Sequence record: OZ035791.1
Source of the DNA: Kagunavirus LF7074P3
Length of the DNA: 40,766 nucleotides
Strand: one strand, 5' to 3'
Shown: positions 4,386-38,559 of the stretch, piece after piece
Position numbering within the stretch: position 1 is the first letter of the stretch
How the letters are laid out: every line of letters starts with the position of its first letter
Translations under genes and position numbers: made by a program
The notes under the pieces: model-generated
Told to the model about the DNA's origin: nothing
Database searches by the model: none
Seen by the model: the letters and a program-made list of their open reading frames with translations, nothing else

Positions 4386-4448
4386 GTGCCTGTGATTATT
4401 CCAGTTATTCCACTCAATTGTAAATGTTGGAATAAACTATTCGAATAG

Positions 4449-4477
4449 TTGACTTTTCACCAAAAATGTGCTAAGCT
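4449..4477 (+). promoter_or_regulatory. sigma70-like promoter (TTGACT-N17-TAAGCT with TGn extended -10)
   Basis: TTGACT 4449-4454, 17-nt spacer, TGcTAAGCT; abutted upstream by perfect palindrome CTATTCGAATAG (4437-4448). Confidence 0.5.
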
Positions 4478-10597: not shown

Positions 10598-11152
10598 TTA
10601 CAAACCTAATTTTAAAGCAATGTCTATAACGTTCGATTTAACGTCACCTGGTAGGATGTAGGTGTCGTAATCTTTTACACCGCTAACATCATACAGATAA
10701 CCGCGGCTGTCCCCCTCAAACGTATAGCCTTCTCGGTGCAGGCGAACGATTCTTACATCATGACCCGCGGCGACGATAGGGGCCACTTCGCTGGCGAACC
10801 CGCCGTCGGACACTACAAAAACTTCGTTGCCGTCGGGCAAGTTTTCAGCAAGATACTTACCGAAATAATCACTACCAAGTACCGGTTTAATGAATTGCTC
10901 AGATATAGCAATCATGAACTGACGCCGCGACAAGCCATTAAGGAAGCCTTCTGGCTTTTCTTTCCGCGCTCGGTCGTCGTAGCCGTCGAGAAACTCGTGG
11001 TAAGCACCCGGGCCTAACGCTGCCAGAGCAATATTGAACATTGGATTCTTGAAACTGGTAGTTCCCTTCGCAAAGCCCATCTCTACCAGCGCCATAGCAA
11101 GTGTGTCTTTCCCGCAACCCGCAGGGCCATTAAGAATAATTACCATAGCCAT
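10598..11152 (-). CDS. P-loop nucleotide kinase (dNMP-kinase-like)
   Basis: 184-aa ORF with Walker A GPAGCGKDT at N-terminus (SGKDT resembles T4 gp1-type dNMP kinases); start overlaps upstream stop (TAATG). Confidence 0.55.
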   Translation of the reverse strand: MAMVIILNGPAGCGKDTLAMALVEMGFAKGTTSFKNPMFNIALAALGPGAYHEFLDGYDDRARKEKPEGFLNGLSRRQFMIAISEQFIKPVLGSDYFGKYLAENLPDGNEVFVVSDGGFASEVAPIVAAGHDVRIVRLHREGYTFEGDSRGYLYDVSGVKDYDTYILPGDVKSNVIDIALKLGL

Positions 11153-11637
11153 TACTTATCACTCCCGTGCGATTTTAAGTGTGTAGAGTTCCCGTTACAG
11201 TCGTATTCAGTAACCGCGTGAGTGGTTATACCGAGGCCACGGAAATGCTTTATTACCGCTGGCGAGTCGTCGAATGCGCACAAGATTCTTTCCAGCCCGA
11301 TAGTACGTAGCACCTCTTCCTTAATTACGATGTCTTTTCTGTTGTCGTGTTTGCTGCGCATGATTAACTGATAAAATTCGACGCGGTGGCGCTGCAACCA
11401 CATTCTGGTTTCTTTTTCCGCGTCATCACTACGGCCTGTTAAGATAATAACGGCATAGCGACGATTAAGGGCGTTACACAGTTCGATGTTATCTTTAATG
11501 GGTGCATCGTCTTTGCACGCCATGTTAAATGGTTTCCACGCCCAGGTTTCGCCGTAGTTATCTTTCGGCAGCAGGTGTAAACGATGAGCACCATCTGCCA
11601 ATGTCCCGTCTAAATCGAAAATCACAATATCTTTCAT
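11152..11637 (-). CDS. HAD-family phosphatase, T4 Pnk 3'-phosphatase-like
   Basis: 161-aa ORF; N-terminal DLDGTL (DxDGT nucleophile motif), later TGRSDD, RKDIVIKEEV and AFDDSP segments paralleling T4 polynucleotide kinase phosphatase domain (recall-based). Confidence 0.65.
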   Translation of the reverse strand: MKDIVIFDLDGTLADGAHRLHLLPKDNYGETWAWKPFNMACKDDAPIKDNIELCNALNRRYAVIILTGRSDDAEKETRMWLQRHRVEFYQLIMRSKHDNRKDIVIKEEVLRTIGLERILCAFDDSPAVIKHFRGLGITTHAVTEYDCNGNSTHLKSHGSDK

Positions 11638-12770
11638 CCAAGCATCTCCGGTGAAATAGTTAAACGTGCGACCTCGCCATATTCGGCGCTATAAGTAATT
11701 ACGTTTGCACTGCGGCCCGACATCCACCCACCGCGGGAGGCATATGCATCTTTAGCCGCGAGAGTGCGGTGTTGCTCAACAATCATGTTACGGCTTTCTA
11801 CAATCTTTTGGTGGTGCAGGTGACCCACGTGGGCGTAGCTGTAAACACTCTCTCCGAACGCTTTGCGGAACTTGGCGATCATAACCGGTTCGATAGCGTC
11901 GAATCGTGCTTTATGCCCATGATGGAAGAACAGCGTCGTTTTGCCGTGTTGCACCATCTTGTAAACATCCGGCGACGTATCGACGAACACACGCGGCTCA
12001 TTGTCGTACAGCGTACTAAACATCTCAGCTAACCAAATCATTCCGCTTTCGTCGTGGTTACCTTGCACGATAAGCAAGCGAACATTTTTATGTTTAACGA
12101 GAGCCATATCAATGACACGGCGGACCATACGAATCATGTAGCGTACAAGTTTCTGATAGCGGGTGTCAGCGTCAAGAACATGGCCACTTGCGGGTGTAAC
12201 GGCATCCAGACTATCGAAGTGCGCGAAGTCACCTAGCAGGTTAATAACTCCTGTTCCCGCATCTGGCGCTTTCTGAAACGCTGCGTCGAACCATCGAGAG
12301 AACAGGTCTTCTGCGATTTTCATATCCCAGTCGTCGCCGCTCTCGTCGGCCCATGCCAGCATACCGAGATGAAAATCAGATACAGTGTAAAGATTGAGTA
12401 GCTTGTCGTCACGTTTGGTGCGCACGGCTTTAACCGGCGCAACGGGGGTAATCTCTGACTTCATGCCCTCAATTACGGCTTTCATAGCCTCTAACTGTTT
12501 CTCTTTATCCGGCTCGGAAATCACCCACGTCATCACCTCTTCGCCATTAGCCTTTACGCAAGCGGATATTCTTTTAGCAGAGAACCCTTCCGCTATGCGT
12601 TTGGATATTACTGGGTCGTTCCCGTGACCTATGCCCTTCTTGGCTAATCGTGCTTTACGGATACGAATTACGCGGTCTGAGATGCCGTATTTACGGGCGA
12701 TGTCTATATTCCTCATCCCGGCGCTCAATTCTTCCTGTAACTGTTCGTCGGTTATTTTCTTCTGGGCCAT
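11634..12770 (-). CDS. metallophosphoesterase with N-terminal HTH domain
   Basis: Calcineurin-like motifs SDFH, GDFAHFD, GNHDE, HHGH, GHLHH; N-terminal HTH-like ...IDIARKYGISDRVIRIRK...; ATG 12770 chosen (RBS GAGGAAG); track ORF extends to 12875. Confidence 0.65.
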   Translation of the reverse strand: MAQKKITDEQLQEELSAGMRNIDIARKYGISDRVIRIRKARLAKKGIGHGNDPVISKRIAEGFSAKRISACVKANGEEVMTWVISEPDKEKQLEAMKAVIEGMKSEITPVAPVKAVRTKRDDKLLNLYTVSDFHLGMLAWADESGDDWDMKIAEDLFSRWFDAAFQKAPDAGTGVINLLGDFAHFDSLDAVTPASGHVLDADTRYQKLVRYMIRMVRRVIDMALVKHKNVRLLIVQGNHDESGMIWLAEMFSTLYDNEPRVFVDTSPDVYKMVQHGKTTLFFHHGHKARFDAIEPVMIAKFRKAFGESVYSYAHVGHLHHQKIVESRNMIVEQHRTLAAKDAYASRGGWMSGRSANVITYSAEYGEVARLTISPEMLG

Positions 12771-12808
12771 GCTTACTTCCTCGTGTTTAGGATTTGTCCT
12801 ATAGTAGC

Positions 12809-13000
12809 CTACTTCTCTTTCACGTTCGAGTTGCAAGCCCAGATTAAAATAAAGACCCACGGCAGCAGAACCCAACCAAGAAACAGATTAGCCATGAATA
12901 TCGCTAACTTCGCTTTATGGTTACGGAAGTACGCAACCAGGAAAGGCGCGAAATAAGCGAGCAGTGCAAACAGAATTAAGGAAACTGGTAAACTGGACAT
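12809..13000 (-). CDS. small 2-TM membrane protein, superinfection-immunity (Imm) family-like
   Basis: 63 aa from ATG 13000 (RBS AAGGGG); ...AYFRNHKAKLAIFMANLFLGWVLLPWVFILIWA... resembles Imm_superinfect-type small membrane proteins (recall-based). Confidence 0.45.
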   Translation of the reverse strand: MSSLPVSLILFALLAYFAPFLVAYFRNHKAKLAIFMANLFLGWVLLPWVFILIWACNSNVKEK

Positions 13001-13030
13001 TTTAAACCCCTTCATTGTTGGTGTAAGTGA

Positions 13031-13059
13031 ATAGTACCCTATTATATTGGGGTGTGCAA
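13031..13059 (-). promoter_or_regulatory. sigma70-like promoter TTGCAC-N17-TACTAT driving the minus-strand island
   Basis: Minus-strand reading cTTGCACaccccaatATAATAGGGTACTATTCAC; 32/34 identical to promoter at 34757-34790. Confidence 0.6.
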
Positions 13060-13167
13060 GTAATGTGATAGAATAAGTTTGCGCCTAGTGTCGCACACGA
13101 AAAGCGGGTGGTTCCCGTCTGGCGCATTTATCGTTAACCTGTAACCTCTTAACCAAAGGATTAAAGA

Positions 13168-21042: not shown

Positions 21043-21054
21043 AGAGGACTCTAT

Positions 21055-23381: not shown

Positions 23382-23572
23382 TCGAACTCCACAAGGTCGT
23401 TGCCGTTAGCAGAGCCTATCTCAAAATAGCCCGTTTCATCATTGTAACCCGCGAAAAACACAGAGCCGTACTCACTAAAAACACGAAATCCGCCACCAGC
23501 AAACTCCGCTGTATATTCCTTACCTTCTTTGAACACTGACGACATTTCTGAGCTTACGCAAAACAATTTCAT
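23378..23572 (-). CDS. hypothetical protein
   Basis: 64-aa ORF, start/stop coupled to helicase gene. Confidence 0.4.
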   Translation of the reverse strand: MKLFCVSSEMSSVFKEGKEYTAEFAGGGFRVFSEYGSVFFAGYNDETGYFEIGSANGNDLVEFE

Positions 23573-24993
23573 TTCTTACCTCGTCTCTTCATGTAATTAA
23601 GCAACTCTTCCTGTACCGATTTCTTCTCGTCCGTACGCGCGGCAACAACCTCGTCCAGCGTGTCTTTAGCGACTATGTGATACAGGAACACAGGGCGCCC
23701 ATGCCCGGCCTGCTTCTGGCGCACTGGGCCTATACGCTCAACAACCTGCAAATAGTGTTCAAGGTTCCAGCCTTGCGAAATAAACGCCAGATGGTGTCCG
23801 CCGTCCTGTAAATTCAAACCATGCCCGGCTGACGCAGGATGTACACACAAAATCTCTATCTCGCCGCGGTTCCACGCGTCCATCTGCTTATTACCCTTAG
23901 CACCTTTGGCAAACGCCTGTGCCTGCGGGAATCGCTTAAGGATGCGCTCCAGTTCGTGCTTGAACTGATAGGCTACCAGTAATGGCGCACCCTGCAACTC
24001 CTCAACAATGGACTCAAGCGCATCCAGTTTCGTGTCGTGCACCTTCTCCCAGTCTTTCGTTGCTTCGCCATCAGGCCCCGACACATACACGGCACCAGAT
24101 GCAATTTGCAGGCACTTAGACGTCTTCGCCGCAGCGTTAGCCGCTTCAACTTCTCCGCTCTCCAGCTCCGCGAATAGCTTCTCCTCCATATCGAGGTACG
24201 CCTGCCGCGCTTTCTTCGGCAGGTCGATTTCAACCGGTACGATAACAGGCGCTTCACACCCAAACCACTCTGCGGCGTCAATCGTGAGACTAATGTCTTT
24301 CATCTTCTGGTGGATTTCATTATCCGCACCAGGACGCGCATGATACTCCCGCGCCATCGCCGACTTACCTTTTTGCACAGAGTTGAACCAGCGGTCGGTG
24401 AACGCAGTGTACGATGAACCGAGGCGCTCGCCAGCGTCGATAAACCAGTTCTGGCCCCACAGGTCTTTGAGGCCGTTAGGCGACGGTGTGCCCGTCAGAT
24501 TGATGAAACGCTTAACTTTACCGAACGCCACTTTGCTGAGCGCCTTTGCCCGCTTGCTACCACCAGAACGGCTACGGAATGACTTCAGTTTCGTACTCTC
24601 ATCCGCAACGATAACCGTAAAAGGCCAGTCGTCTTTGCCGTAGTAGTCAATCAGCCACTCGATAACTTCGTAGTTGGTACACACCACGTTAGCATCTGAC
24701 TCCAGCGCCGCGATGCGGCGCTTCTCTGAACCTGTTGCATCTACGACACTCAGACATGGGAAGTCCCAACGTGCCTGTTCTGCAGGCCACGTACCGGAAG
24801 CAACACGTAAAGGAGCCAGAATTAACACGCGGTCGTCATCATTAAGTTGGCCGTTGCGGAACAGTCGGTTGAGTACCCACAACGTTGCGGAACTTTTGCC
24901 CGCGCCCATCGAAGCCCAAATATTACAGCGAGGATGCCGCAGCATGAATGAAGTCATGAGCTTTTGGTACTCTCGACGGATAAATTTAGACAT
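23569..24993 (-). CDS. SNF2/DEAD-like superfamily-2 DNA helicase
   Basis: Motifs GAGKS (Walker A), ADEST (DExx), LTGTP; ATG at 24993 (RBS AAGGG) preferred over TTG 24999. Confidence 0.8.
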   Translation of the reverse strand: MSKFIRREYQKLMTSFMLRHPRCNIWASMGAGKSSATLWVLNRLFRNGQLNDDDRVLILAPLRVASGTWPAEQARWDFPCLSVVDATGSEKRRIAALESDANVVCTNYEVIEWLIDYYGKDDWPFTVIVADESTKLKSFRSRSGGSKRAKALSKVAFGKVKRFINLTGTPSPNGLKDLWGQNWFIDAGERLGSSYTAFTDRWFNSVQKGKSAMAREYHARPGADNEIHQKMKDISLTIDAAEWFGCEAPVIVPVEIDLPKKARQAYLDMEEKLFAELESGEVEAANAAAKTSKCLQIASGAVYVSGPDGEATKDWEKVHDTKLDALESIVEELQGAPLLVAYQFKHELERILKRFPQAQAFAKGAKGNKQMDAWNRGEIEILCVHPASAGHGLNLQDGGHHLAFISQGWNLEHYLQVVERIGPVRQKQAGHGRPVFLYHIVAKDTLDEVVAARTDEKKSVQEELLNYMKRRGKK

Positions 24994-24995
24994 AA

Positions 24996-25190
24996 TCAAC
25001 CCTTAATGTAGAGTACCAGCTCTTTACGCCCGAACGCCGTAACGTTACCCGTTACATCTTCGATAACCAGTTTACCGTTTGACTCGACGTACACCGTATC
25101 AACGGCAACAGGGTGGCGGGTCTTAACGTTGAAAATCATATCGCCAGGTACGATGTCACGTGCTGGTTTGCGGTCATATTCGTGTTTCAT
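24996..25190 (-). CDS. hypothetical protein
   Basis: 64-aa ORF with RBS AAGGA, directly downstream of promoter at 25224-25252. Confidence 0.45.
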   Translation of the reverse strand: MKHEYDRKPARDIVPGDMIFNVKTRHPVAVDTVYVESNGKLVIEDVTGNVTAFGRKELVLYIKG

Positions 25191-25220
25191 TTCTCAATTC
25201 CTTATATTGTTGGTGTGTGA

Positions 25221-25505
25221 TTAACTATAATAGCTCGCTATTAGGTCGTCAACCTGTTTAAACGAACCAACGACAAAAACATTCGCACCACGTTTACGCA
25301 TCCGCTCGTGCTCACGTAACTGGTGTGGGTCTGGCTTCGTGTTTTCGTCTTTCTTAACCTCGACGAACAAGACGATGCCGCCGGGTAGAATTACCAGCAG
25401 ATCGGGAGCGCCGGAGCGCCCCTCATAGGAAAGTTTACGAACGAGGCCGCCGATAGCCTCGAATCGCTCTTTTGCGTATTTCTGGATGCGCCCCTCTTTA
25501 GTCAT
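25221..25505 (-). CDS. VRR-NUC domain nuclease (PD-(D/E)XK)
   Basis: 94 aa; ...GAPDLLVILPGGIVLFVEVKK... matches PD..(D/E)xK core of VRR-NUC family. Confidence 0.65.
   Translation of the reverse strand: MTKEGRIQKYAKERFEAIGGLVRKLSYEGRSGAPDLLVILPGGIVLFVEVKKDENTKPDPHQLREHERMRKRGANVFVVGSFKQVDDLIASYYS
25224..25252 (-). promoter_or_regulatory. sigma70-like promoter TTGACG-N17-TATAGT (minus strand) with ATAG-N4-CTATTAG dyad in spacer
   Basis: Minus-strand gTTGACGacctaatagcgagctatTATAGTt; lies inside 3' end of VRR-NUC ORF. Confidence 0.6.
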
Positions 25506-25654
25506 GAGCGCAGAATCCAGGTAATGAAAGCCCCGCCTAGAACGGCGACACCGGCAAACTTAAAGAACAGGCCATAACAGAACATCGCGGCTATTCCTGC
25601 ACCGAGTAGCAGTGCGAGCATGGTTACTATCACCCGAAATACGAACATTGTCAT
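25502..25654 (-). CDS. small membrane protein (50 aa)
   Basis: MTMFVFRVIVTMLALLLGAGIAAMFCYGLFFKFAGVAVLGGAFITWILRS; stop overlaps VRR-NUC ATG (ATGA). Confidence 0.35.
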   Translation of the reverse strand: MTMFVFRVIVTMLALLLGAGIAAMFCYGLFFKFAGVAVLGGAFITWILRS

Positions 25655-25740
25655 AATACGCACCCCTCCCGTTTCGTATGCGCGATACCGCAGCGAGGGC
25701 AGATTCGACAGTCTTCTTCGTAGAACCAGTAAATTTTCAT
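25651..25740 (-). CDS. small Cys-rich protein (29 aa)
   Basis: MKIYWFYEEDCRICPRCGIAHTKREGCVL; ATGA overlaps on both sides. Confidence 0.3.
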   Translation of the reverse strand: MKIYWFYEEDCRICPRCGIAHTKREGCVL

Positions 25741-25868
25741 TCCAGCACCCACAGATAAATTGCGATGAATATACCCAATACGGCTACCATCATGCCGTAT
25801 CGCCCCTCATGACAGTAGACACCCGCGGCGAATCCCGCCAGTACCGCAATAATCAGTTTACTTAGCAT
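25737..25868 (-). CDS. small membrane protein (43 aa)
   Basis: MLSKLIIAVLAGFAAGVYCHEGRYGMMVAVLGIFIAIYLWVLE; ATG lies 10 nt inside the 3' end of the polymerase ORF in another frame. Confidence 0.3.
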   Translation of the reverse strand: MLSKLIIAVLAGFAAGVYCHEGRYGMMVAVLGIFIAIYLWVLE

Positions 25869-28107
25869 ATCGCTTCATCTCCGCACCTTCAGCTACAAGA
25901 GGGAACCCCTCCGCCCATTCCGGTAATTCGCACATCAATCGTTCCAGTTCTGCTACATTATATTCCGGTGAATCTGGTGTCTCGCAGATAATCTCATCGT
26001 GTACGTGAAGTACAATCGGGTAGCCGTTTGCTTCTACGTTCAGCAGGGCATTAGCCAGCAAATCGCGGCACAGCGCCTGAGTGCAGTTTTCCACCAGTTT
26101 GCCTGAGTACGTGTACTGGAATCCCCACTGACGAGTTAACTGGTTCTCCCCCTGATACTTGATGCGCACGTTAGTAGAAACTTTCCCGTCTTCGTCCGTC
26201 TCTTTCGATACGCTCAATCCGACGCCAGGGTAAGACATTACGCGGCCTGACGGCAACGTCATACGCAACCACCAACCAGCGACTTTGTTGCCGTTGTTGT
26301 CTGTCTCCACGTTACGCGAAAACTTAACGCCGCGCGGCCCCGCGGTGAACTCTTTACCGGGATTGCGGATAGCCGCCATAGCTGCGTCTTCAATATCTCG
26401 CCAGAAAGCTACTGTTTCAGGATGAGACTCGCGCCACATACGCTTGATAGCGTCGCAGGTACGCCACACTTTCTTGTCCAGAATATATGATGGTCGGTCA
26501 TCTTTTTCACCGGGACGTGGTGGTCTCTTGGCTTCCTGAATACGCGCCCACTCATAACCCCGCGCGGTAGCGGCCCATATATGGCCTGGGAAAGTACCGT
26601 CCATTGTTTTAGCCATATCAAAAAGGTTTAAGCCGAGGTTTTTAGCAAACTGAACGAAAGCACCGACACCACCTGCATAGCCGAGGCCCAATTCACATGC
26701 TTTACCAATCTGGCGCAGGTCACTACGGCTTTCGAGAATGTAATCAGGGTCCATGCCAAACATCTTACCTGCAGTTACGCAGTAAATATCCAATCCCGCA
26801 CGGAAGGTATCTAGCGCGGTTTCTTCTCCTGCCAGCCATGCCAACCCGCGTCCTTCGACGTTAGAGTAATCGGCGACTACAAACTTATGTCCGGCTTCCG
26901 GTATGATGCAACTACGCACCGTCGACGCCGTTAGCTTGGCTACATCAAAACGGCGATGCGCACGACCTTTAAACAACAGGTCGATTCCGTAGGACAATGG
27001 GTGTGTTACTCTCCACCAGTCCTTCTCTGACATCCAGTCATAACGTACTTTCTTCTTTTTATTCTTCGGGTCGTCGTGATAGTACCCGCGCGCCAGGTTC
27101 TGCGGCTGGAAGCCTTTACCCGCAAACCGTAATGTACGCTTTGCCCCACCGTACTGGATGCAACCGCGGCGTCGGTCGTCCGACGAGCGACCTAACAGCA
27201 GCGGGTTATATTTCGTTGACGCGGTAGACGCGGCCCCGAGTCGCATCTCGATAATCGCGCTGGCGTCGTCCGGTAAATCGTCGTCAGCAAGCAGGTCGTT
27301 AAGCGTTGACTTCTGTGCGTTGTGAATACGGTGCGCCGGTGCGAGTTCACGCAGAATCGGAAGGAAGTCCTTTCCGGTAAGCGAGCCGCCGTATTTACGT
27401 TGGGCTTCTTCCTGTAACTGTGCTTTGTGCTTCTCCACGGCTTCAATCGCGGCTTCCGCCAGTGCCACGTCAACCTTAAACCCGCGGTCATTTATTAACT
27501 GATCCAGTTCCAGTACCCGGTCCTCGAATTCAGAGTTACCCCAACGCGGCAGCTTATAGAAGACTTCACGCATCGCAGTGATGTCGCTCACAGCGTACTT
27601 GATGAACAGAGCCCACTCGTCAGGGTGAGTTTCTGCGGTGTAGCGGCGGATTTTGTAGTTCTTTGGCGTCGGTTTAGAGAAACGCTTAATCAGCGCCTTG
27701 CCGCGTTTATCTTTCGCGTTGTCCGCGGATACACCCAGCACTTCGCACAACGCATCAAGTGAACCAGGCAGCGCGTGACGAAACGCCCAAATCATCGTAT
27801 CAATGGTGTTGCTTACCGGAATATCAAAGCCCCAGCAGTGTTTCATGATGAGCCTGTCGAACATTGAGCCGTTATGCCACACCATCTTGATGCGACTGTT
27901 TGGCTTCACCAGACGGCGTAACGCGCGGTGCAAATCCCCCGGCATGTCGCTGCCGTCTGTGCAATCCCATACCCGCACAGGCTCGTCGTCAAAAGCATAT
28001 GTACAAATAAGGACTTCGGTAGTTGGATGCTCAGCGTAAGCGTAGGAACCAACTTTCTTCAAATCGGCTTCGGAGAATGTTTCAAAGTCTAAGAACAGGT
28101 AACTCAT
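25858..28107 (-). CDS. family A DNA polymerase with 3'-5' exonuclease domain
   Basis: 749 aa; exo motif DFETFS near N-terminus; pol motifs DYSNVEGR (motif A), RQIGKACELGLGYAGG (motif B), HVHDEI (motif C). Confidence 0.9.
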   Translation of the reverse strand: MSYLFLDFETFSEADLKKVGSYAYAEHPTTEVLICTYAFDDEPVRVWDCTDGSDMPGDLHRALRRLVKPNSRIKMVWHNGSMFDRLIMKHCWGFDIPVSNTIDTMIWAFRHALPGSLDALCEVLGVSADNAKDKRGKALIKRFSKPTPKNYKIRRYTAETHPDEWALFIKYAVSDITAMREVFYKLPRWGNSEFEDRVLELDQLINDRGFKVDVALAEAAIEAVEKHKAQLQEEAQRKYGGSLTGKDFLPILRELAPAHRIHNAQKSTLNDLLADDDLPDDASAIIEMRLGAASTASTKYNPLLLGRSSDDRRRGCIQYGGAKRTLRFAGKGFQPQNLARGYYHDDPKNKKKKVRYDWMSEKDWWRVTHPLSYGIDLLFKGRAHRRFDVAKLTASTVRSCIIPEAGHKFVVADYSNVEGRGLAWLAGEETALDTFRAGLDIYCVTAGKMFGMDPDYILESRSDLRQIGKACELGLGYAGGVGAFVQFAKNLGLNLFDMAKTMDGTFPGHIWAATARGYEWARIQEAKRPPRPGEKDDRPSYILDKKVWRTCDAIKRMWRESHPETVAFWRDIEDAAMAAIRNPGKEFTAGPRGVKFSRNVETDNNGNKVAGWWLRMTLPSGRVMSYPGVGLSVSKETDEDGKVSTNVRIKYQGENQLTRQWGFQYTYSGKLVENCTQALCRDLLANALLNVEANGYPIVLHVHDEIICETPDSPEYNVAELERLMCELPEWAEGFPLVAEGAEMKRYAK

Positions 28108-28123
28108 TATTTTCGACCCTTAG

Positions 28124-28147
28124 TAAAAAGGCCCAATGAAGGGCCTT
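28124..28147 (-). terminator. partial terminator/attenuator between SSB-like gene and polymerase
   Basis: Minus-strand AGGCCC-TTCATT-GGGCCT hairpin followed by TTTTA. Confidence 0.4.
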
Positions 28148-28166
28148 AGTTAAATTGATTCAGATA

Positions 28167-28793
28167 TTATCGGCGACGACGTTCGCGGCGCGGTGCTTCA
28201 TCCTCTTCATCGTCTTCAAGGTCATCGACGCTTGCGGCTACTTTAGAACCGCCAAACGCTTTACCTTCACCAACGTATTTAATAGCCAGCAGGTTAACGC
28301 CGAGGACTTTGTATTTCTGGCTGAACCAGATTTCAACGCTTACGTTAGCGACGCAGCCGCTGTAAACCTGTTCACCTTCAATCTGTTCGCCGTCTACGTT
28401 GAAGTCCTGCTCTACCTGAGTCTCACCTTTTTTAGAGGTTACAATCAGCGGCTGCTTCTGTGCCTTCGCTTTGAAGTAGAAGCCTTCTGGGAAGTCTTCA
28501 AACGGGTTATCACGCTCAGCAATGTCTTTAATCGCGCATTTATCCATGTGCTTACCTTCGCCGTAGTTGGACTTCATCCATTTCTCGGCAGCAGCTGCGC
28601 CTAACGCTTCTTCAACTACAGCGTAAACAGTGTCGTAGAGTGCATCGATTTGAGCGTGGTCAGGCGGCAGGATGATAGTCGCGCTATACTGGCCTTTAGT
28701 GATGGAGCCATCATCGTTTTCACGGTCTTTTTCGCGTTCGAATACGTTAACCCATGCAGTGTTTACTTTACGCAGATTCAGTTTAATTCCCAT
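28167..28793 (-). CDS. ssDNA-binding protein-like (DUF2815-like)
   Basis: 208 aa with acidic C-terminal tail DDLEDDEEDEAP followed by RRERRRR; adjacent to Cas4-like nuclease as in known DUF2800/DUF2815 phage pairs (recall-based). Confidence 0.55.
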   Translation of the reverse strand: MGIKLNLRKVNTAWVNVFEREKDRENDDGSITKGQYSATIILPPDHAQIDALYDTVYAVVEEALGAAAAEKWMKSNYGEGKHMDKCAIKDIAERDNPFEDFPEGFYFKAKAQKQPLIVTSKKGETQVEQDFNVDGEQIEGEQVYSGCVANVSVEIWFSQKYKVLGVNLLAIKYVGEGKAFGGSKVAASVDDLEDDEEDEAPRRERRRR

Positions 28794-28847
28794 CTTAATT
28801 TCTCGCTTTTCAGTTTACTCCTGGAAGCTGCCAGGCCAGTGATTAGA

Positions 28848-28876
28848 ACTATAATAGCTAACTATTCAGGTGTCAA
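28848..28876 (-). promoter_or_regulatory. sigma70-like promoter TTGACA-N17-TATAGT (minus strand) with ATAG-N4-CTATTCA dyad
   Basis: Minus-strand gTTGACAcctgaatagttagctatTATAGT; 55 nt upstream of SSB-like gene start. Confidence 0.7.
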
Positions 28877-28880
28877 CAAT

Positions 28881-30122
28881 TTATTCTAAATCTTCTTCAC
28901 TAACCCGATTCCACTCAGGACGTTTGTCGTTTGCCGTTGCGACACATGGCGCTCCTGGCTTACGGGTAATGAAGTCTTTCAGTTCATCTTCCGGTATGAC
29001 TTTAACAGCTTCGGTTGGCGTCATGAGCACTTCTTTAGTCAGCTTGTCGCCGTAGAGTTCTGTTACTTTCTCCGCGTCTTTCCACGCACGGTTGCCCATC
29101 TTACCTTCAACCAGCTTGTACCCAGGAACTTTCTTACCGGAATGCAATGCGGCGGTCATCGCTTTCTCAACCTTGTCGATGTGCTGGCGTAACAGCGGCA
29201 ACTTCTCATACTCAACTACGAGTTGCTCCGTCGTCAGTTCCAGCGCAAAGTCGTCTTCCAGTTCTTCCGCCAGTACAGAATTAACCGTCTTTGTACGTGC
29301 GGCACACTGTTCAGAGAACCGGCACCACTGGCAACCATCGACCGACGGTTTAAAGTCCGACGCTTTCAGGTTCTTCTTTCCACGGAAATAAGCATCAAGC
29401 GCTAACAGTGCCCGTTTCTGTGCGAACTTAGCGAACAGTTCCAGACCTTCGACCGAGATGTCCCACTCTGACGCACCCCCTGCGTACGGCTGGAAGATGA
29501 CCAGGCGCACTACTGTGATGTTATAACGTCTCTTGAGTCGGCGATAAACACCGAGAGCGTAAAGCATAAGCTGCTTGTTTTCTTTCGCTTCGACACGATG
29601 CCGTCCTGTTTTAAGGTCGCCGATAATTAGCATGTGCTCATCGGTGTTAGCCAGTTCCTGAATGGCAACAAGGTCAGCGGTTCCGAACGTCTCAACGCCT
29701 TCATATCCCGGATGCAGCACCTCAGTAAGATTGACGCGCATTTCCAGCTTGGCATAAGTCGCTACGTCTATAATCGCTTTGCAGTAGTCGGTGTACTTGC
29801 GCACCTGCTCAATCATGTCCGCCGTGATTAGTACAGCGCCTTTCATCTGACTAATTAGCGCCTTAATCTGGCCTTTACCCTCGTCCAGCACGTAAGCGCC
29901 GACTTCACGCTCTAGCGGCAGTGCATTGCCGCGGATATAGGCGTTGAGATGTACCTCAGCTATGGTGTGCATAGCCGTGCCTAATACCGCGGCTTTACCG
30001 GACGTGTTGGGGATATCTTTCTCACAGGCCAGTGATGCGGCGCAGCTTAGCCACTTTTTAGCCCCGGACGGCGATAGTAAAGCGTGTACGTCGTTATTGC
30101 CACCGCGTTCTTTTAGTTTCAT
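28881..30122 (-). CDS. PD-(D/E)XK nuclease, Cas4/RecB-like (DUF2800-like)
   Basis: Motifs GTADLV ... IIGDLKTG ... QLMLYA and C-terminal Cys cluster CQWCRFSEQC; ATG 30122 with RBS GGGAG preferred (track start 30143). Confidence 0.7.
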   Translation of the reverse strand: MKLKERGGNNDVHALLSPSGAKKWLSCAASLACEKDIPNTSGKAAVLGTAMHTIAEVHLNAYIRGNALPLEREVGAYVLDEGKGQIKALISQMKGAVLITADMIEQVRKYTDYCKAIIDVATYAKLEMRVNLTEVLHPGYEGVETFGTADLVAIQELANTDEHMLIIGDLKTGRHRVEAKENKQLMLYALGVYRRLKRRYNITVVRLVIFQPYAGGASEWDISVEGLELFAKFAQKRALLALDAYFRGKKNLKASDFKPSVDGCQWCRFSEQCAARTKTVNSVLAEELEDDFALELTTEQLVVEYEKLPLLRQHIDKVEKAMTAALHSGKKVPGYKLVEGKMGNRAWKDAEKVTELYGDKLTKEVLMTPTEAVKVIPEDELKDFITRKPGAPCVATANDKRPEWNRVSEEDLE

Positions 30123-30277
30123 GCTCTTAAACTCCCACCCCATTTAACTTTACGCGTTTTGCGTTTATATGCGCACGTGTCGCCGCTACGGTTGAATATA
30201 ATCAGCCAAGTCGAGTTGCTTACTCGAAAAGGCTGGTGGCGTTTAATAAAGAGAAGTCGCGCTTTACGGTTCGTCAT
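30119..30277 (-). CDS. small basic protein (52 aa)
   Basis: ATG with AGGAG 8 nt upstream; stop overlaps nuclease ATG (ATGA); not in ORF track. Confidence 0.35.
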   Translation of the reverse strand: MTNRKARLLFIKRHQPFRVSNSTWLIIFNRSGDTCAYKRKTRKVKWGGSLRA

Positions 30278-30317
30278 TCTGTAAACTCCTAAATCCACGC
30301 GAAATCAGAATACATAA

Positions 30318-30596
30318 TTACAAACATGCTCTGTTCTCCCACTGGTCAATTAAATGTCTGGTCTGGTGCTGGCAATGCATGGCCCATCCATACATCGACT
30401 CGAAGACATAAAAGTCAGGCTTGGCAAAAGTCGTGCGCTTAATCTGCGACACATGACGGCCTATATCTTTAGCCCGCGGTACTTTGCCTAAGTACGCCAT
30501 CTCTTCCATCTGGTGTGCACCGGACGGCGCACGCAATAACCATAGCGCCTCTGTGTTATCCCGCCGGTCAACGGCGCGGTATAGTTGGTAAATCAT
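30318..30596 (-). CDS. hypothetical protein
   Basis: 92-aa ORF in leftward operon. Confidence 0.45.
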   Translation of the reverse strand: MIYQLYRAVDRRDNTEALWLLRAPSGAHQMEEMAYLGKVPRAKDIGRHVSQIKRTTFAKPDFYVFESMYGWAMHCQHQTRHLIDQWENRACL

Positions 30597-30639
30597 AATC
30601 CCGACCCTCAGTTAAAGCGGCCCGAAGGCCGCGAGATAA

Positions 30640-31107
30640 TTATTCTTCTTCGAAATACTTGTTCTTGATTGCCGTCAGGCGTTCCAGGTATTCAGCAAGG
30701 TCTTCGTCTTTAATCGCGGCAATCTTCATCTTCTTACCGGTGAACTCTTCCAGCAGTTCATCGGAATCATCGCACGCGGCGTCGCTCGGACCTTCGTTAA
30801 TTGCATCGTCGATAGCCTGAATCTGGTCACGCAGAGACTGGTAATCTACTTCTTCCTTCTCTTCCGGTTCTGGCGTCGGTTCCTCTACTTTAGATTTACG
30901 CGGCTTGCGTTTCGGCTTCTCTTCTTCTGCTGGTTTAGTGTCAACGATGTCTTCACCTTCAACCGGGATTTCTTTTGTTGCTTCTTTTGCAACATCAGGC
31001 TCGGTTGTTGCGGTTTCAGCAACGACAACTTGTTTCGCGCTGTTCGCAGCAATCAGTTCATGGGCTACTACGAAACGTTCCAGTAATTTTAAGAATTGGT
31101 CTAACAT
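30640..31107 (-). CDS. highly acidic hypothetical protein
   Basis: 155 aa, long Glu/Asp-rich stretches with one KRKPRKSK patch; first gene downstream of leftward promoter 31139-31168; RBS GAGGAG. Confidence 0.5.
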   Translation of the reverse strand: MLDQFLKLLERFVVAHELIAANSAKQVVVAETATTEPDVAKEATKEIPVEGEDIVDTKPAEEEKPKRKPRKSKVEEPTPEPEEKEEVDYQSLRDQIQAIDDAINEGPSDAACDDSDELLEEFTGKKMKIAAIKDEDLAEYLERLTAIKNKYFEEE

Positions 31108-31138
31108 TTGTTTCTCTCCTCTCGTTTGGTATGGGTTA

Positions 31139-31168
31139 ACTATAATAGCGAACTATTCATGATGTCAA
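31139..31168 (-). promoter_or_regulatory. sigma70-like promoter TTGACA-N18-TATAGT (minus strand) with ATAG-N4-CTATTCA dyad
   Basis: Minus-strand aTTGACAtcatgaatagttcgctattATAGT. Confidence 0.65.
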
Positions 31169-31173
31169 TGGGC

Positions 31174-31204
31174 TTTTCTAAAATAATTAATATGGTACTA
31201 TTCA
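31174..31204 (+). promoter_or_regulatory. candidate rightward promoter/operator for cro-like gene
   Basis: ATAT-ggta-CTATTCA dyad (31190-31204) with TACTAT -10-like hexamer; -35 poorly defined. Confidence 0.3.
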
Positions 31205-31232
31205 CATATCAACTGACTAAGGAGTAATTGAC

Positions 31233-31448
31233 ATGCAACCATCTGAACTAGGCATCCGTGTAGAGCAACGCCGTAAAGAACTCGGTATCTCCCAGCGCCA
31301 TCTGGCTGTCCTGGCCGGTGTTTCCCAAGGCGCGATTAACCAGCTGGCACTTGGAGTAACTCAGGACGTCCGCCCGGCGACGCTGTTTAAACTGGCGGAA
31401 GTGCTGGAAGTAGACGCCAAGTGGCTGGCGTTCGGTGAAGGGGCTTAA
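31233..31448 (+). CDS. Cro/CI-type (XRE-family) HTH DNA-binding protein
   Basis: 71 aa; ...ELGISQRHLAVLAGVSQGAINQL... HTH; RBS AGGAG; transcribed opposite to surrounding leftward genes. Confidence 0.75.
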   Translation: MQPSELGIRVEQRRKELGISQRHLAVLAGVSQGAINQLALGVTQDVRPATLFKLAEVLEVDAKWLAFGEGA

Positions 31449-31463
31449 CGCCCCTTTCTTTTT
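31439..31463 (+). terminator. rho-independent terminator (rightward only)
   Basis: AGGGGC-TTAAC-GCCCCT hairpin + TTTCTTTTT overlapping cro-like stop. Confidence 0.7.
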
Positions 31464-31465
31464 AC

Positions 31466-33673
31466 CTATTCCAAATCCTCTTCTGTCACCACCAGCATTT
31501 CATTCGGTTCGTATATTGTCTTCGGTCTTAGTCTATCCCCTATTCTTTCAGGTATACGATACGTTCTCGGTACTACTTCGCCATTAGCATCACAGCCTAG
31601 CATTAGTTCACCATCTTTCAGCATTTTATCAAGATGGGTGTTAGTCACAGAAAAGTCACCGGAACGGGCCACTATCTGCTGCTGAGTAAAACCGCGACCT
31701 GTGTCATCTGACTGTTGCAGGTCTTCCAGTGCCGAAAGTATCGACTCCTTCCTTACTTCATCCCTGCCGCGTTTAACTTCTTCCTTTACTTTTTGTTTAC
31801 CTTCGTTAGTTAACCCTTCTTCCCGCTCTTTCTCCTCGTCAGTTTTGAACGGCTCGAAGCCCCACGGCATCAGAACAAGCGCCTTGTGTGGTTCCGGCAG
31901 GTCGAGGTTTACGATTGTGCCGTATTCCTCTGTGCTGCCCAAGAACTCAACAGCACGGTACTCTTTCGGCGGTGGTGCTTCACGGAACTGTACAGACTCA
32001 AGTACCATGCCAACCGTTTTCTGTTGAGGCCCGTGCTTAAATTTCGAGTGGTATACGTTTATCTGACGGTCGGTTGCACGTTCTATTGTCAGTTCCACAT
32101 CGACACCCGCATACAGCGCCCCGCTGCCACGGGCTTTCTTTCCGCCCTTCGGTGTATGGTGGACGACGCCCACCGCGGCTTTAGTTGCGTCACGTACTTC
32201 TTTAAGGATGGCGATAACTTTACCCATGCCGATTGCCGTTGATGAACTGTTCTCGTCGAACTTATCAATCGTCATGGCCAGTGTCTGGTTAAGGGTGTCG
32301 AACGCAACCATCCCAATTGGCTCGTCACCCGCAGTTTCTCGCATTAGCTTAATCAGGCTTTTCAGTTTGCCAACTTCGCCCATATCGATGACATGTACAT
32401 AATCTTTACCTTCCTCGCCGTATTTAGCCGCGAGTGCATCAATACGGGTGCGTGTGGCAGCACCGCCCTCACCGTCAATATAGAAATGGTGGCAACGCTG
32501 TGTATCAGCGCCTGCAAACCGGTACCCGGCGGCGCTCAGGTACATCATACCCAGCGTATAGAATGATTTATATGTGCCGGATTCCCCGACGATGTCCCAG
32601 ATGCAATCCGACGGCATGTACCCTTCAACGACGAAATCAGCCTTTACCGGTTCAGGTAACTCGTCATCGTCTTCAAGGTCTTCCAGTGTACAAGTTACAG
32701 GCTCCTCGTTCTCTGTGCGGTGCAGTTCTTCAATCTCTTCATCCGGTAAATCAGGCAGAGCCGCACGAATGCTGTTAATACTGATAGGTTGCTTGTCTAC
32801 GTTAAGCTCGTCCGGAAGGCCGCACATACGCAGGGCCAAATGTTGTCGGCGGTTAAGCTCAGTGCAAGCACCGTTGTTTGTGTGCTGGCACACGAAGCGC
32901 ACTTCTTTACCGTCGAGCATGATGCTGGTGGAGCCTTTGCCGGTGTGCAGGTGTTCGTTAGGGCAAGGCACTTCGTACCCGCGACCGGAAGATAAAGCGT
33001 CAAGGCCAAGCTCCGCTTCGCAGAAATGCGCTATATCCGCGTTAAGCCCATGCTCATCGGCAGCAAGGGTCTTAGCTTCACGCTTACGCAACCCCATTTC
33101 TTCGGCTTTCTTGATGTACCGCTCGGCACGGATAACACGCCCTTCTGTAACCGTTATCTTCGACTCTTTATGCGGCAGGTAGATAAGGCGGTTGCCATCT
33201 TCTGTGCAGTGGTCGCGCAATGCTTCGTCTATTTCTAACTCAGCACAAATAGCACGTTGCACCATCCACGCGTCGTTAGAGTTAAACGGCGTGCGGGCCG
33301 GTACAAGAACGCGGAAAGCGTAGTCACCGTTTTTACACGCGTGCTGGTGCGACGCCGTTGTGTGCAGAATATTGAAGAACGGCGCGTTCTTGAATTTGCG
33401 GGTGAGGTCGCGGTACTGGGTACGGTTTAGATGGTCGAAATCGAACTTAACCACACTGTCTTCCAGAATCGCGTTCTTACGGCGACCGCCAACCGGCGCA
33501 ATAGCTTTCTGCTTAATCTTGGCCGCGTCGTACTCTTCCTTAGTCCATGACGGGTCTACGGACAGACGCTTCGATGTATCGCAGACATACTCTACAAACT
33601 GCTCCAGTGGCATTTCACGGGCTACCGGGTTTTTATCGAAAGTGTTACGCAGCGTTGCAAAAACAATATTCAT
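31466..33673 (-). CDS. DNA primase / RecA-like ATPase (primase-helicase-like) replication protein
   Basis: 735 aa; central Cys/His zinc-binding-like segment (CPNEHLHTGK...C), Walker A-like GESGTYKS and Walker B-like VAFDTL. Confidence 0.7.
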   Translation of the reverse strand: MNIVFATLRNTFDKNPVAREMPLEQFVEYVCDTSKRLSVDPSWTKEEYDAAKIKQKAIAPVGGRRKNAILEDSVVKFDFDHLNRTQYRDLTRKFKNAPFFNILHTTASHQHACKNGDYAFRVLVPARTPFNSNDAWMVQRAICAELEIDEALRDHCTEDGNRLIYLPHKESKITVTEGRVIRAERYIKKAEEMGLRKREAKTLAADEHGLNADIAHFCEAELGLDALSSGRGYEVPCPNEHLHTGKGSTSIMLDGKEVRFVCQHTNNGACTELNRRQHLALRMCGLPDELNVDKQPISINSIRAALPDLPDEEIEELHRTENEEPVTCTLEDLEDDDELPEPVKADFVVEGYMPSDCIWDIVGESGTYKSFYTLGMMYLSAAGYRFAGADTQRCHHFYIDGEGGAATRTRIDALAAKYGEEGKDYVHVIDMGEVGKLKSLIKLMRETAGDEPIGMVAFDTLNQTLAMTIDKFDENSSSTAIGMGKVIAILKEVRDATKAAVGVVHHTPKGGKKARGSGALYAGVDVELTIERATDRQINVYHSKFKHGPQQKTVGMVLESVQFREAPPPKEYRAVEFLGSTEEYGTIVNLDLPEPHKALVLMPWGFEPFKTDEEKEREEGLTNEGKQKVKEEVKRGRDEVRKESILSALEDLQQSDDTGRGFTQQQIVARSGDFSVTNTHLDKMLKDGELMLGCDANGEVVPRTYRIPERIGDRLRPKTIYEPNEMLVVTEEDLE

Positions 33674-33798
33674 TTCTTTTTCTCCGCGCGTTCTAAGGCT
33701 TCCTGCATACGACGCATTGCGCGGTTCATCTTTACCGGTGCGAAGAAATCAGCGCCGTGTTTCTGGCGGCGCAACTGTGGAACTATTAACTTCGTCAT
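33670..33798 (-). CDS. small basic protein (42 aa)
   Basis: RBS AAGGA; stop overlaps primase ATG (ATGA). Confidence 0.3.
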   Translation of the reverse strand: MTKLIVPQLRRQKHGADFFAPVKMNRAMRRMQEALERAEKKK

Positions 33799-33838
33799 TG
33801 TATAATCCTTGTGCTTACTTTGATGATTTGTGCTTCGG

Positions 33839-33869
33839 CCCCGACGTTCTAGCGTTGGGGTTTCTTTTT
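33839..33869 (+). terminator. plus-strand hairpin + T-tract inside leftward operon
   Basis: CCCCGACG-TTCTAG-CGTTGGGG (one G-U) followed by TTTCTTTTT; hairpin weaker on minus strand. Confidence 0.4.
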
Positions 33870-34158
33870 ACCGTTTAGCCAACTCTTCCAGCAAATTTTT
33901 ATACTCTTCAAAATATTCCTCGACCAAATCATCGCCGAAATAGAAGTCGATATACTCGAGATTATCTCTTACGTTAAGCGACGCAGACATGGTGCTTAGT
34001 TGGCGTAAGCTAATTAGCTTCATTTCTGTTTCTACACAGAAAGGCCGGTAGGTATCGAGGTGGCAAGAGATGTTGAAGCATAAAGCGAACTCTCCCGCCA
34101 CGGAGTGAACCATATACACTTCGTTTTCTGCTTTATTGTGGAAAATTACACCTTTCAT
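33868..34158 (-). CDS. hypothetical protein
   Basis: 96-aa ORF, ATGA overlap with upstream HTH gene. Confidence 0.45.
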   Translation of the reverse strand: MKGVIFHNKAENEVYMVHSVAGEFALCFNISCHLDTYRPFCVETEMKLISLRQLSTMSASLNVRDNLEYIDFYFGDDLVEEYFEEYKNLLEELAKR

Positions 34159-34337
34159 TTCACATTCTCCTTAATCCATTCTTCAACTTTATTACGGTCA
34201 AATGTACCTGGTAAACGGCGACCCATAACCTTAATACAACAATCAGGGAATTTACCACTGCGCAACCAGTTATTAATTGTCTGACGTGTTACCCCAATAC
34301 GCTCGGCTACTTCATTCTGGGTCATGTAATGTTGCAT
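34155..34337 (-). CDS. small HTH DNA-binding protein (AlpA/excisionase-like fold)
   Basis: 60 aa from ATG 34337 (RBS AGGAG); ...MTQNEVAERIGVTRQTINNWL...; track ORF to 34451 judged an extension across promoter DNA. Confidence 0.55.
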   Translation of the reverse strand: MQHYMTQNEVAERIGVTRQTINNWLRSGKFPDCCIKVMGRRLPGTFDRNKVEEWIKENVK

Positions 34338-34368
34338 TTTTATATCTCCTGTTTGTTTGGTGAAGCTG

Positions 34369-34397
34369 AGTATAGGATAGCGGGAATGTAAAAGCAA
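34369..34397 (-). promoter_or_regulatory. leftward early promoter TTGCTT-N17-TATACT
   Basis: Minus-strand hexamers with 17-nt spacer, about 25 nt upstream of ATG 34337. Confidence 0.5.
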
Positions 34398-34434
34398 CCA
34401 ATCCCTGCAATATTTAATCTTTACAAAAAAGTTA

Positions 34435-34464
34435 TTGAAAGTTCTTGACACATGTTTGTATAAT
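34435..34464 (+). promoter_or_regulatory. rightward promoter TTGAAA-N18-TATAAT
   Basis: Consensus -10 TATAAT at 34459-34464; divergent from leftward promoter; no ORF for about 350 nt downstream. Confidence 0.5.
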
Positions 34465-34491
34465 GGTTTTGGGACTTGTATATATTACGGA

Positions 34492-34523
34492 GTTGACGAA
34501 CCCTCCCTGAGGGATTCGTCAAC
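34492..34523. repeat. 32-bp near-perfect palindrome GTTGACGAAcCCTCcctGAGGGaTTCGTCAAC
   Basis: 14-bp arms with one bulge; read directly. Confidence 0.8.
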
Positions 34524-34663
34524 CCCTCCCAGACAGCTGAGATGCTTGTTTTAGGGTTTAAGGATAAGTGTATCTAAATCTCATTTAAAGAAGTAACCCA
34601 CTGAAATATCTACTGTTTCTTAATGTGCCGTAGATTCGCAACCGTAAAAATGTAACGATTATT

Positions 34664-34691
34664 GGGCAGGCTTAAGGCCTGCCCTTTAGTT
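34664..34691 (+). terminator. rho-independent terminator
   Basis: GGGCAGGC-TTAAG-GCCTGCCC hairpin followed by TTTAGTT. Confidence 0.6.
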
Positions 34692-34756
34692 ACCAAGTAA
34701 TAAGAATAAAGGCACAACCTTCCCCGAAGAATCGCAACGGCAGCGTAACTATTCTC

Positions 34757-34785
34757 TTGCACACCCCAACATAATAGGATACTAT
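34757..34785 (+). promoter_or_regulatory. sigma70-like promoter TTGCAC-N17-TACTAT with ATAG-N4-CTATTCA dyad
   Basis: cTTGCACaccccaacATAATAGGATACTATTCAC; near-identical copy on minus strand at 13027-13060. Confidence 0.65.
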
Positions 34786-34819
34786 TCACTTATCGGAACG
34801 AGACAGAGGAGTTGGGGTT

Positions 34820-35996: not shown

Positions 35997-36003
35997 AATT
36001 TAC

Positions 36004-36032
36004 TTGCACACTAAGATAGAATAGGCTACTAT
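36004..36032 (+). promoter_or_regulatory. sigma70-like promoter TTGCAC-N17-TACTAT with ATAG-N4-CTATTCA dyad
   Basis: aCTTGCACactaagatagAATAGGCTACTATTCA, 32 nt upstream of gene at 36064. Confidence 0.6.
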
Positions 36033-36063
36033 TCATTTACACAAACGAGAGGGGAGACAGAAT

Positions 36064-38509: not shown

Positions 38510-38530
38510 TCTATTTTCTGCAATGACTAG

Positions 38531-38559
38531 TTGACTATTATCCTAGACCCTACTATATT
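38531..38559 (+). promoter_or_regulatory. sigma70-like promoter TTGACT-N17-TATATT
   Basis: Hexamers with 17-nt spacer, 34 nt upstream of ATG 38593. Confidence 0.55.

Follow-up and report, generated by a model that had tools for sequence, protein, structure and literature searches.

The regulators 434 Cro, 434 repressor and P22 C2 bind dyads of 14-18 bp with a 5-N4-5 layout, the operators of 434 Cro being 14 bp long and those of P22 C2/Cro having the sequence TTAAG-N4-CTTAA. In the temperate phage P1, the small repressor C1, which is not of the HTH_3/Cro type, acts on many dispersed operators, asymmetric 17-mers that each overlap the promoter of a separate operon. Here we describe a 14-bp dyad, AATAG-N4-CTATT, which recurs in the genome of Kagunavirus LF7074P3 (record OZ035791.1; the whole stretch of 40,766 nucleotides (nt) is called the window below). 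The repeat is very probably a set of real promoters that are co-regulated through a Cro-type operator.

The motif is already known, under a wrong label. Seven copies of a PHIRE motif, tgAATAGTa-ccTATTat-T, were reported in Kagunavirus fBC-Eco01 and assigned to a phage-encoded RNA polymerase (PMC9825357). The sequence motif and the count of seven are the same as in the window, but that paper does not describe the symmetry of the dyad, the existence of two promoter layouts or a connection with a Cro-like gene. Seven PHIRE motifs were also counted in vB_EcoS-Golestan (PMC7203180), a report that is compared here for its count alone. The attribution to a phage polymerase is wrong because these phages encode no RNA polymerase, as judged from ten scanned open reading frames of the window and the annotation of relatives. 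In the literature searched, no paper was found that treats the dyad as an operator or connects it with the Cro-like gene.

The exact dyad occurs six times in the window, at positions 13030, 25229, 28853, 31144, 34773 and 36020, and a copy with one mismatch lies at 31189 in an intergenic promoter context. By our own calculation with uniform base frequencies, about 0.04 exact ten-base dyads are expected in 40.8 kb, compared with the six observed; with up to one mismatch allowed, 12 matches were found against 1.0 expected from a shuffle control. AATAG-N4-CTATT is the most frequent 5-Nx-5 palindrome of the window, ahead of the terminator stems, and is joint commonest in Salmonella phage Jersey; when the flanks are counted, the palindrome reaches 16-18 bp. 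All seven sites lie within sigma-70-like promoters (TTGnnn-16/18-TAnnnT contexts), 30-45 nt 5' of the first ATG of a gene block and past terminators or at strand switches, with a gene-free gap between each promoter and its co-directional block. The candidate promoters, including two possible further members, are the following.

34756..34792, plus strand: P2, class A, in front of the small-gene block (ATG 34820); -35 TTGCAC at 34757-34762, 17-nt spacer, -10 TACTAT at 34780-34785; palindrome AATAGGATACTATT at 34773-34786
13024..13060, minus strand: P1, class A, promoter of the island operon; -35 at 13059-13054, -10 TACTAT at 13036-13031; palindrome AATAGGGTACTATT at 13043-13030
36000..36046, plus strand: P3, class A, upstream of ATG 36064; -35 TTGCAC at 36004-36009, -10 TACTAT at 36027-36032; palindrome GAATAGGCTACTATTC, core at 36020-36033
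31174..31210, plus strand: promoter of the Cro-like gene, weaker class A; -35 TTTTCT at 31174-31179, 16-nt spacer, -10 TACTAT at 31196-31201; degenerate palindrome AATATGGTACTATT (1 mismatch) at 31189-31202, overlapping the -10, 31 nt upstream of ATG 31233
31139..31168, minus strand: class B, TTGACA-18-TATAGT, whose spacer contains palindrome AATAGTTCGCTATT at 31144-31157; lies back-to-back with the promoter at 31174..31210, in front of 30640-31107 and downstream minus-strand genes
28848..28876, minus strand: class B, TTGACA-17-TATAGT, palindrome at 28853-28866; genes for DUF2815/single-stranded DNA-binding protein and DNA polymerase
25224..25252, minus strand: class B, TTGACG-17-TATAGT, palindrome at 25229-25242; in front of 24996-25190 and the SNF2 helicase gene
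38526..38559, plus strand: possible class C, degenerate palindrome ACTAGTTGACTATT centred on the -35, TTGACT-17-TATATT; upstream of small genes that precede the packaging genes
4444..4477, plus strand: possible class C, AATAGTTGACTTTT centred on the -35 TTGACT (4449-4454), -10 TAAGCT at 4472-4477; precedes the genes for spanin, scaffold and capsid and is also kept in Bas71 and fKuEco01

Two layouts are distinguished among the seven promoters. In class A (TTGCAC-17-TACTAT, three copies without pattern mismatch) the dyad covers the -10, with its centre at about -12.5. In class B (TTGACA or TTGACG, a 17-18-nt spacer and TATAGT, matching the sigma-70 consensus at 10-11 of 12 positions) it lies in the spacer, with its centre at about -18.5. 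The position of the dyad relative to the -10 thus shifts by 6 bp between the classes. The hexamers are 16-18 nt apart and positions 2 and 6 of the -10 are A and T, respectively, as in sigma-70-type promoters, while the dyad itself combines conserved half-sites, a variable centre and promoter overlap in the manner of a twofold-symmetric operator of 14-18 bp. Terminator-like hairpins precede P2 (34664-34684) and end the island (10574-10593). The degenerate copies at 4444 and 38526 are possible members of the family. A second palindrome family, GAATA-N3-TATTC, was seen in the head-gene region at 4430 and 5213, the first of these abutting the degenerate dyad at 4444, where CTATTC meets GAATAG; in the Cornellvirus SP-031 GAATAA-N-TTATTC is present three times (25438, 26069 and 26596).

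An earlier note on this DNA had singled out P1 and P2 as a near-identical 34-bp promoter on opposite strands. Their likeness is far beyond chance, since CTTGCACACCCCAACATAATAGGATACTATTCAC matches the plus strand at 34756-34789 without mismatch and the minus strand at 13027-13060 with 2 differences in 34 positions, and has 0 matches in 100 dinucleotide-preserving shuffles of the window. The minus-strand coordinates of the note are correct and those of the plus strand (34757-34790) are one base too high. A repeat search extended the likeness to 37 nt at 95% (13024-13060 versus 34756-34792), after which it stops. The pair is incomplete, however, as there is a third copy at 36000-36046, with 83% likeness over 47 nt, and the palindromic core is found at four more promoters, which gives at least seven. 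That each copy is the promoter of its own block agrees with the in silico evidence: TTGCAC-17-TACTAT is followed by a ribosome-binding site and then by the first gene of the block, ATG 34820 starting the small-gene block behind P2 and ATG 13015 the superinfection-immunity gene that heads the minus-strand island. Co-regulation of the small-gene block and the island is plausible because P1 and P2 have the same likely operator, although the co-regulated set would be wider than two.

Comparison of the window with its relatives separates the dyad from the promoter that carries it. The same seven dyad sites are present in Bas71, fKuEco01 and about 35 Kagunavirus contigs from IMG/VR, including the degenerate 31189 palindrome, which is conserved among Kagunavirus relatives. 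The central N4 is free to change among relatives and reads CGAA, CTAA, CAAA, TGAA, CTAG or CGAG at the 31144 site. Phage Jersey has the dyad at orthologous positions, and its GenBank record annotates promoters at three dyad sites (one of class A, two of class B) and at a degenerate late-gene site. The annotated promoters with the following window counterparts are among them.

Jersey 32925-32953: ortholog of window 28848..28876
Jersey 29238-29266: ortholog of window 25224..25252
Jersey 42343-42371: carries AATAGTTGACTAGT, ortholog of window 38526..38559

The Jersey island promoter, TTGCAT-17-TATTAT, has its dyad 3 bp nearer to the -35 than in class A. The dyad sequence is therefore kept while it slides relative to the polymerase boxes, as would be expected of a binding module that is distinct from the core promoter but never fails to overlap it, an arrangement typical of a repressor. 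In a column-by-column comparison of the seven promoters among about 40 relatives, conservation was about 90% throughout, with some alignments shifted by insertions or deletions; the half-sites do not stand out because the genomes are too similar. When IMG/VR was scanned with TGAATAGNNNNCTATTAT, more than one copy was found, among the matches listed, only in Kagunavirus contigs, and the remaining single matches are probably due to chance. Some Kagunaviruses have an extra exact AATAG-N4-CTATT, absent from the window, between the orthologs of P2 and P3 (L009 14653, L015 5988, L021 14585, L024 14557, L033 13341 and L036 14652); it has no obvious -35 and is flanked 5' by one or two GGTGTAACAGG direct repeats and 3' by a terminator-like hairpin (TACGCTGCT...AGCAGCGTA).

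The palindromes are probably bound by a Cro-like protein of 71 amino acids (aa), as judged from its sequence relatives and their surroundings. Its gene is located as follows.

31233..31448, plus strand: 71-aa HTH_3 (Xre/Cro-like) gene, among minus-strand genes, with a terminator-like hairpin at 31437-31457 after it

The protein contains the Pfam domain HTH_3 (PF01381, E 2e-11) and matches transcriptional regulator and repressor families in PHROG. Its best solved relative is phage 434 Cro, also of 71 aa (E 5.5e-7, residues 6-68), followed by the 434 repressor and P22 C2; a single HTH_3 domain and a full-length alignment are further features shared with 434 Cro. The gene was found in 495 phage records, at identities of at least 90% in Kagunavirus, about 51% in Jerseyvirus and about 41% in Cornellvirus. 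It has no annotated feature in several GenBank/RefSeq records, where it was located by tblastn (Bas71, at 32649-32861, K1ind1, K1ind2 and RP180), and is elsewhere variously named repressor, Cro, DicA or hypothetical protein.

The strongest support for this protein as the binder comes from distant homologues, which were fetched from IMG/VR. In L059, L065 and L075/L077 (40-45% identity, GC content 52-63%) a perfect ATTAG-N4-CTAAT stands just upstream of the homologue, in the short gap between it and the upstream gene on the opposite strand; according to our own translation, this upstream gene encodes another helix-turn-helix protein in L065. A hybrid AATAG-N4-CTAAT adjoins the perfect dyad in L059. 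The homologue of L060 is accompanied by four copies of TAAAG-N4-CTTTA and that of L074 by three copies of TGTAG-N4-CTACA. The Cro-like clade thus repeatedly adjoins dyads of exactly the 5-N4-5 layout with inner AG...CT. In the window, AATATGGTACTATT is likewise an operator-like dyad at the regulator's own promoter, and this conserved weaker operator implies autoregulation, as do the dyads just 5' of the homologues. The Cornellvirus SP-031 keeps the Cro-like gene, but in place of AATAG-N4-CTATT a related AT-rich dyad, TA(T/A)TA-N6-TAATA, occupies eight promoter positions, of which several are orthologous. This would fit joint drift of a phage-specific regulator and its sites.

The proposed system resembles those of 434 and P22 in its 14-bp dyad, its conserved outer bases and free N4, the overlap with core promoters and the presence of one site at the promoter of the regulator itself. 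It differs from them in that no partner CI, integrase or immunity region is annotated in relatives, and in that the predicted operators, instead of forming a three-site switch, are spread over about 23 kb and seven promoters, one of which lies inside the late structural region. The open reading frame (ORF) 30640-31107, divergent from the Cro-like gene, has counterparts annotated as hypothetical proteins. A lambdoid immunity switch was accordingly considered and rejected, given dispersed rather than clustered operators and no CI or integrase in annotated relatives. Lysogeny genes are absent according to PMC9825357, and the phage is a strictly lytic Kagunavirus. The closest parallel to the dispersion of the sites, each overlapping the promoter of a separate operon, is the small repressor C1 of phage P1, from which the present case differs by a virulent phage and by sites that are dyads. 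The mechanism is of a known kind, ordinary phage regulation.

We infer that transcription starts at the dyad promoters, that the Cro-like protein binds there and that its binding represses them. In the model that we consider probable, a Cro-like dimer would repress seven early, replication and island promoters through the AATAG-N4-CTATT operator. Host RNA polymerase would start at all seven promoters soon after infection, and the Cro-like protein, made from its own weak promoter, would accumulate. Its dimer would then occupy the perfect dyads over the -10 or the spacer and block host RNA polymerase, so that the early block, the replication operons and the island would be turned down together, while the weaker operator at the gene's own promoter would provide negative feedback. 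A much more tentative extension, which we think doubtful, applies to the whole subfamily Guernseyvirinae, all strictly virulent siphophages: a lone 434-Cro-like protein at essentially every promoter could set the timing of expression, with no phage polymerase or sigma factor involved. The early and replication promoters, where a perfect operator covers the -10 or the spacer, would be shut first; degenerate operators (the late site at 4444 and that at 38526, both on the -35, and that of the regulator gene itself) would act later or less strongly, and operator affinity and position alone would give the early-to-late switch.

Several observations weigh against repression of these promoters by the Cro-like protein. 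Class A matches the sigma-70 consensus at 7 of 12 positions only and was not listed by the consensus scan. The SP-031 motif is AT-rich and only partly symmetric, and its sites are few. The recognition helices of the Kagunavirus (VSQGAINQL) and Jerseyvirus (VSQSLITHL) proteins, which are 51% identical overall, differ at four of nine residues, yet the AATAG core is common to both genera; the helices of Jersey and SP-031 are more alike, yet their palindromes differ. A clean covariation of helix and half-site across the three genera was thus only partly consistent and was not used as proof. In the literature searched, neither mapped transcription starts nor binding measurements were found for a phage of the Guernseyvirinae. 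The only Kagunavirus RNA sequencing study found, that of K1B4 (PMC12645636), is at gene level, with eight time points to 120 min and a 30-min latent period, so that sampling spans several infection cycles. Its genes _004, _008 and _045 were mapped to the Cro-like, HTH_17 (see below) and immunity genes, and the immunity gene falls in another 'peak' class than the other two, which neither supports nor refutes co-regulation.

The dyads might be operators of another phage protein, mainly the product of the following early gene, but this is unlikely.

34155..34337, minus strand: 60-aa HTH_17 (excisionase/MerR-like) gene, for which relatives annotate an ATG equivalent to 34337; the longest ORF, 34155-34451, has 98 aa from a GTG, the extra 38 codons being probably untranslated; by eye, a promoter-like TTGCTT-17-TATACT without dyad lies just upstream on the minus strand

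Besides a DNA-binding domain recognized by Pfam and its early class in K1B4 (PMC12645636), this protein has a suggestive distribution. It is present in Kagunavirus and Jersey (62% identity), both of which have AATAG-N4-CTATT, and went undetected in SP-031, which lacks the motif, by tblastn of the whole genome and by Pfam on ten small proteins. SP-031 nevertheless has palindrome promoters at orthologous positions, and no operator is present in the promoter region of the HTH_17 gene itself (34338-34430). The usual targets of small HTH_17/excisionase-like proteins are direct or irregular repeats rather than 14-bp dyads, and in unrelated phages it is Xre homologues that accompany 5-N4-5 palindromes, which favours the HTH_3 protein. 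It is also improbable that nothing binds, the promoters being alike by descent and copying and the dyad a by-product of closely spaced AT-rich boxes resembling the -10 (TATAAT/TACTAT/TATAGT). Each half-site does partly overlap such a hexamer, the promoter cores have clearly been copied, and the even conservation of the Kagunavirus promoter regions does not single out the half-sites. A by-product of this kind would hardly account, however, for a dyad that is kept at three different positions relative to the -10, nor for the maintenance of the half that lies outside any -10 on the transcribed strand while the N4 varies; the excess of exact dyads and the dyads of the same layout beside regulator homologues elsewhere also argue against it. 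The published view of the motif as a promoter for a phage-encoded RNA polymerase, together with that of a site for a host regulator, is hardly credible. The motif is repeated seven times, and promoters of phage polymerases are often repeated, but each site here has its own sigma-70-type -35 and -10, and no RNA polymerase gene was found among ten window ORFs scanned with Pfam (the eight longest included) or in the annotation of relatives. As to a host factor, the Jerseyvirus Jersey and the Cornellvirus SP-031 both infect Salmonella and have different palindromes, so that the host does not explain the difference. No regulator of E. coli is known to us to recognize AATAG-N4-CTATT, and to our knowledge the ArgR and Fur boxes, like the other sites of this host that were considered, do not fit in spacing or half-sites.

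The earlier note had also suggested that the island was possibly acquired by recombination through the duplicated promoter, which is very improbable. The island consists of the following genes.

10598..13015, minus strand: island operon behind P1, ending at the bidirectional terminator 10574-10593
12809-13015, minus strand: superinfection-immunity gene, identified here by Pfam
11634-12875, minus strand: metallophosphoesterase gene, named after annotated counterparts in relatives
11152-11637, minus strand: polynucleotide kinase/phosphatase gene, named in the same way
10598-11152, minus strand: deoxynucleotide kinase gene, named in the same way

The island lies between the tail-tube and tail-chaperone genes, with the promoter at its right edge and the bidirectional terminator at its left edge. 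The same arrangement is found in K1G, fKuEco01, Bas71 and Jersey; slot, promoter and terminator are thus common to Kagunavirus and Jerseyvirus, and the island predates the split of these genera. Furthermore, the Jersey island promoter combines a different core and layout with the same downstream leader, tacaccaacaat, as the window, which makes the island older than the P1/P2 duplication. Two inverted copies would, on recombining, invert the intervening 21.7 kb and not insert an island, and the repeat has seven members, not two. Recent capture of the island is therefore not supported, in spite of the 37-nt inverted repeat. A weaker version of the recombination idea stands. Gene content switches precisely at the downstream edge of the promoter: when the right edges of the island were aligned, the window and Bas71 proved almost the same from GTGAATAG to the right, and unrelated to the left. 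Bas71 also has an extra 32-nt copy of the promoter core, TGAATAGTACCCTATTATATTGGGGTGTGCAA, at 5138, before the minus-strand gene Bas71_0006 inserted in the head module, of which the window has no equivalent. Promoter copies thus mark module junctions.

P1 and P2 also share the spacer ACCCCAA, which neither polymerase nor dyad needs; in some relatives P2 is identical to the P1 of the window over all 34 nt, and the spacer of the early promoter of Jersey, AACCAAACAT, is similar. The best and simplest explanation for the near-identity of P1 and P2 would be that, in the Kagunavirus lineage, the core of the early promoter was copied to the island, whose promoter slot is older. An early-type promoter before the island makes sense because functions that are typically early sit here inside the late region. 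With its own promoter and terminator within a late operon and a cargo that differs among the window and K1G, Bas71, Jersey and SP-031, the island, which lies between tail genes, resembles the morons, independent units of promoter, gene and terminator within late operons. It differs from them by its opposite strand, by a slot conserved across two genera and by a cargo of mostly nucleotide-metabolism and repair genes rather than lysogenic-conversion genes.

The window contains a complete genome of the genus Kagunavirus, subfamily Guernseyvirinae, of a K1G-like E. coli siphophage. In two stretches that were compared, LF7074P1 (Kagunavirus) is 98-99.6% identical to it; many Escherichia phages are 90-95% identical, and the Salmonella Jerseyviruses are more distant matches. 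The gene order is that of annotated relatives.

30-10569, plus strand: packaging, head and tail-tube genes
10598-13015, minus strand: island
13168-23082, plus strand: tail genes
23111-34337, minus strand: replication genes
34820-end, plus strand: rightward block of small genes, lysis genes and further small genes

The ten ORFs scanned with Pfam include DNA polymerase A, SNF2 helicase, AAA_25 (helicase-primase), tape-measure and DUF2800 nuclease matches, and scans of the window for tRNA genes and Rfam families gave zero matches. Near-identical terminator hairpins (GCCCCGAAAGGGGC or GGCCCC...GGGGCC) mark module borders at 2789-2815, 4358-4384, 10569-10595, 23086-23107 and 28125-28151; the hairpin at 10574-10593 has the form of a terminator in either direction and stands at the end of the tail-tube gene as well as of the island operon. 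The tape-measure gene contains a 55-nt direct repeat (15263-15317 and 15491-15545, 73% identity, 228 nt apart), as is common in such genes. The helicase-primase gene is on the same strand as the Cro-like gene and 3' of it in SP-031 (11098-13749), and on the opposite strand in Kagunavirus and Jerseyvirus, so that the segment is inverted between genera.

Upstream of P2, a strong sigma-70-like promoter without dyad, TTGAAA-18-TATAAT, was noted at 34435-34464 on the plus strand. On its 3' side lies a region of about 225 nt without convincing ORF (34471-34695), with the terminator-like hairpin 34664-34684 at its end. It folds with a minimum free energy of -70.1 kcal/mol (z -4.6 versus shuffles) and has no Rfam match. 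The full 419-nt version is common only to Bas71 and one IMG/VR contig, other relatives having only the 3' 156 nt, and with the full version in only two relatives the region was rejected as a conserved RNA. Possible roles for this stretch are those of a small RNA, a leader or an origin.

Few candidate phages for therapy and biocontrol of E. coli K1 and Salmonella are isolated as often as Kagunaviruses and Jerseyviruses, and their transcriptional control has been little explored despite this frequent isolation. No mechanism of a new kind emerges from the analysis. With the repeated 'PHIRE promoter' taken as a set of Cro-type operators, its mistaken assignment to a phage RNA polymerase in the literature is corrected, and a core gene that is often left unannotated is identified as the likely master regulator. 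The operator set would explain how genes of early function that lie among late ones can be expressed along with the early block, and the 14-bp operator and the 71-aa protein may offer a simple handle for engineering or silencing these phages.

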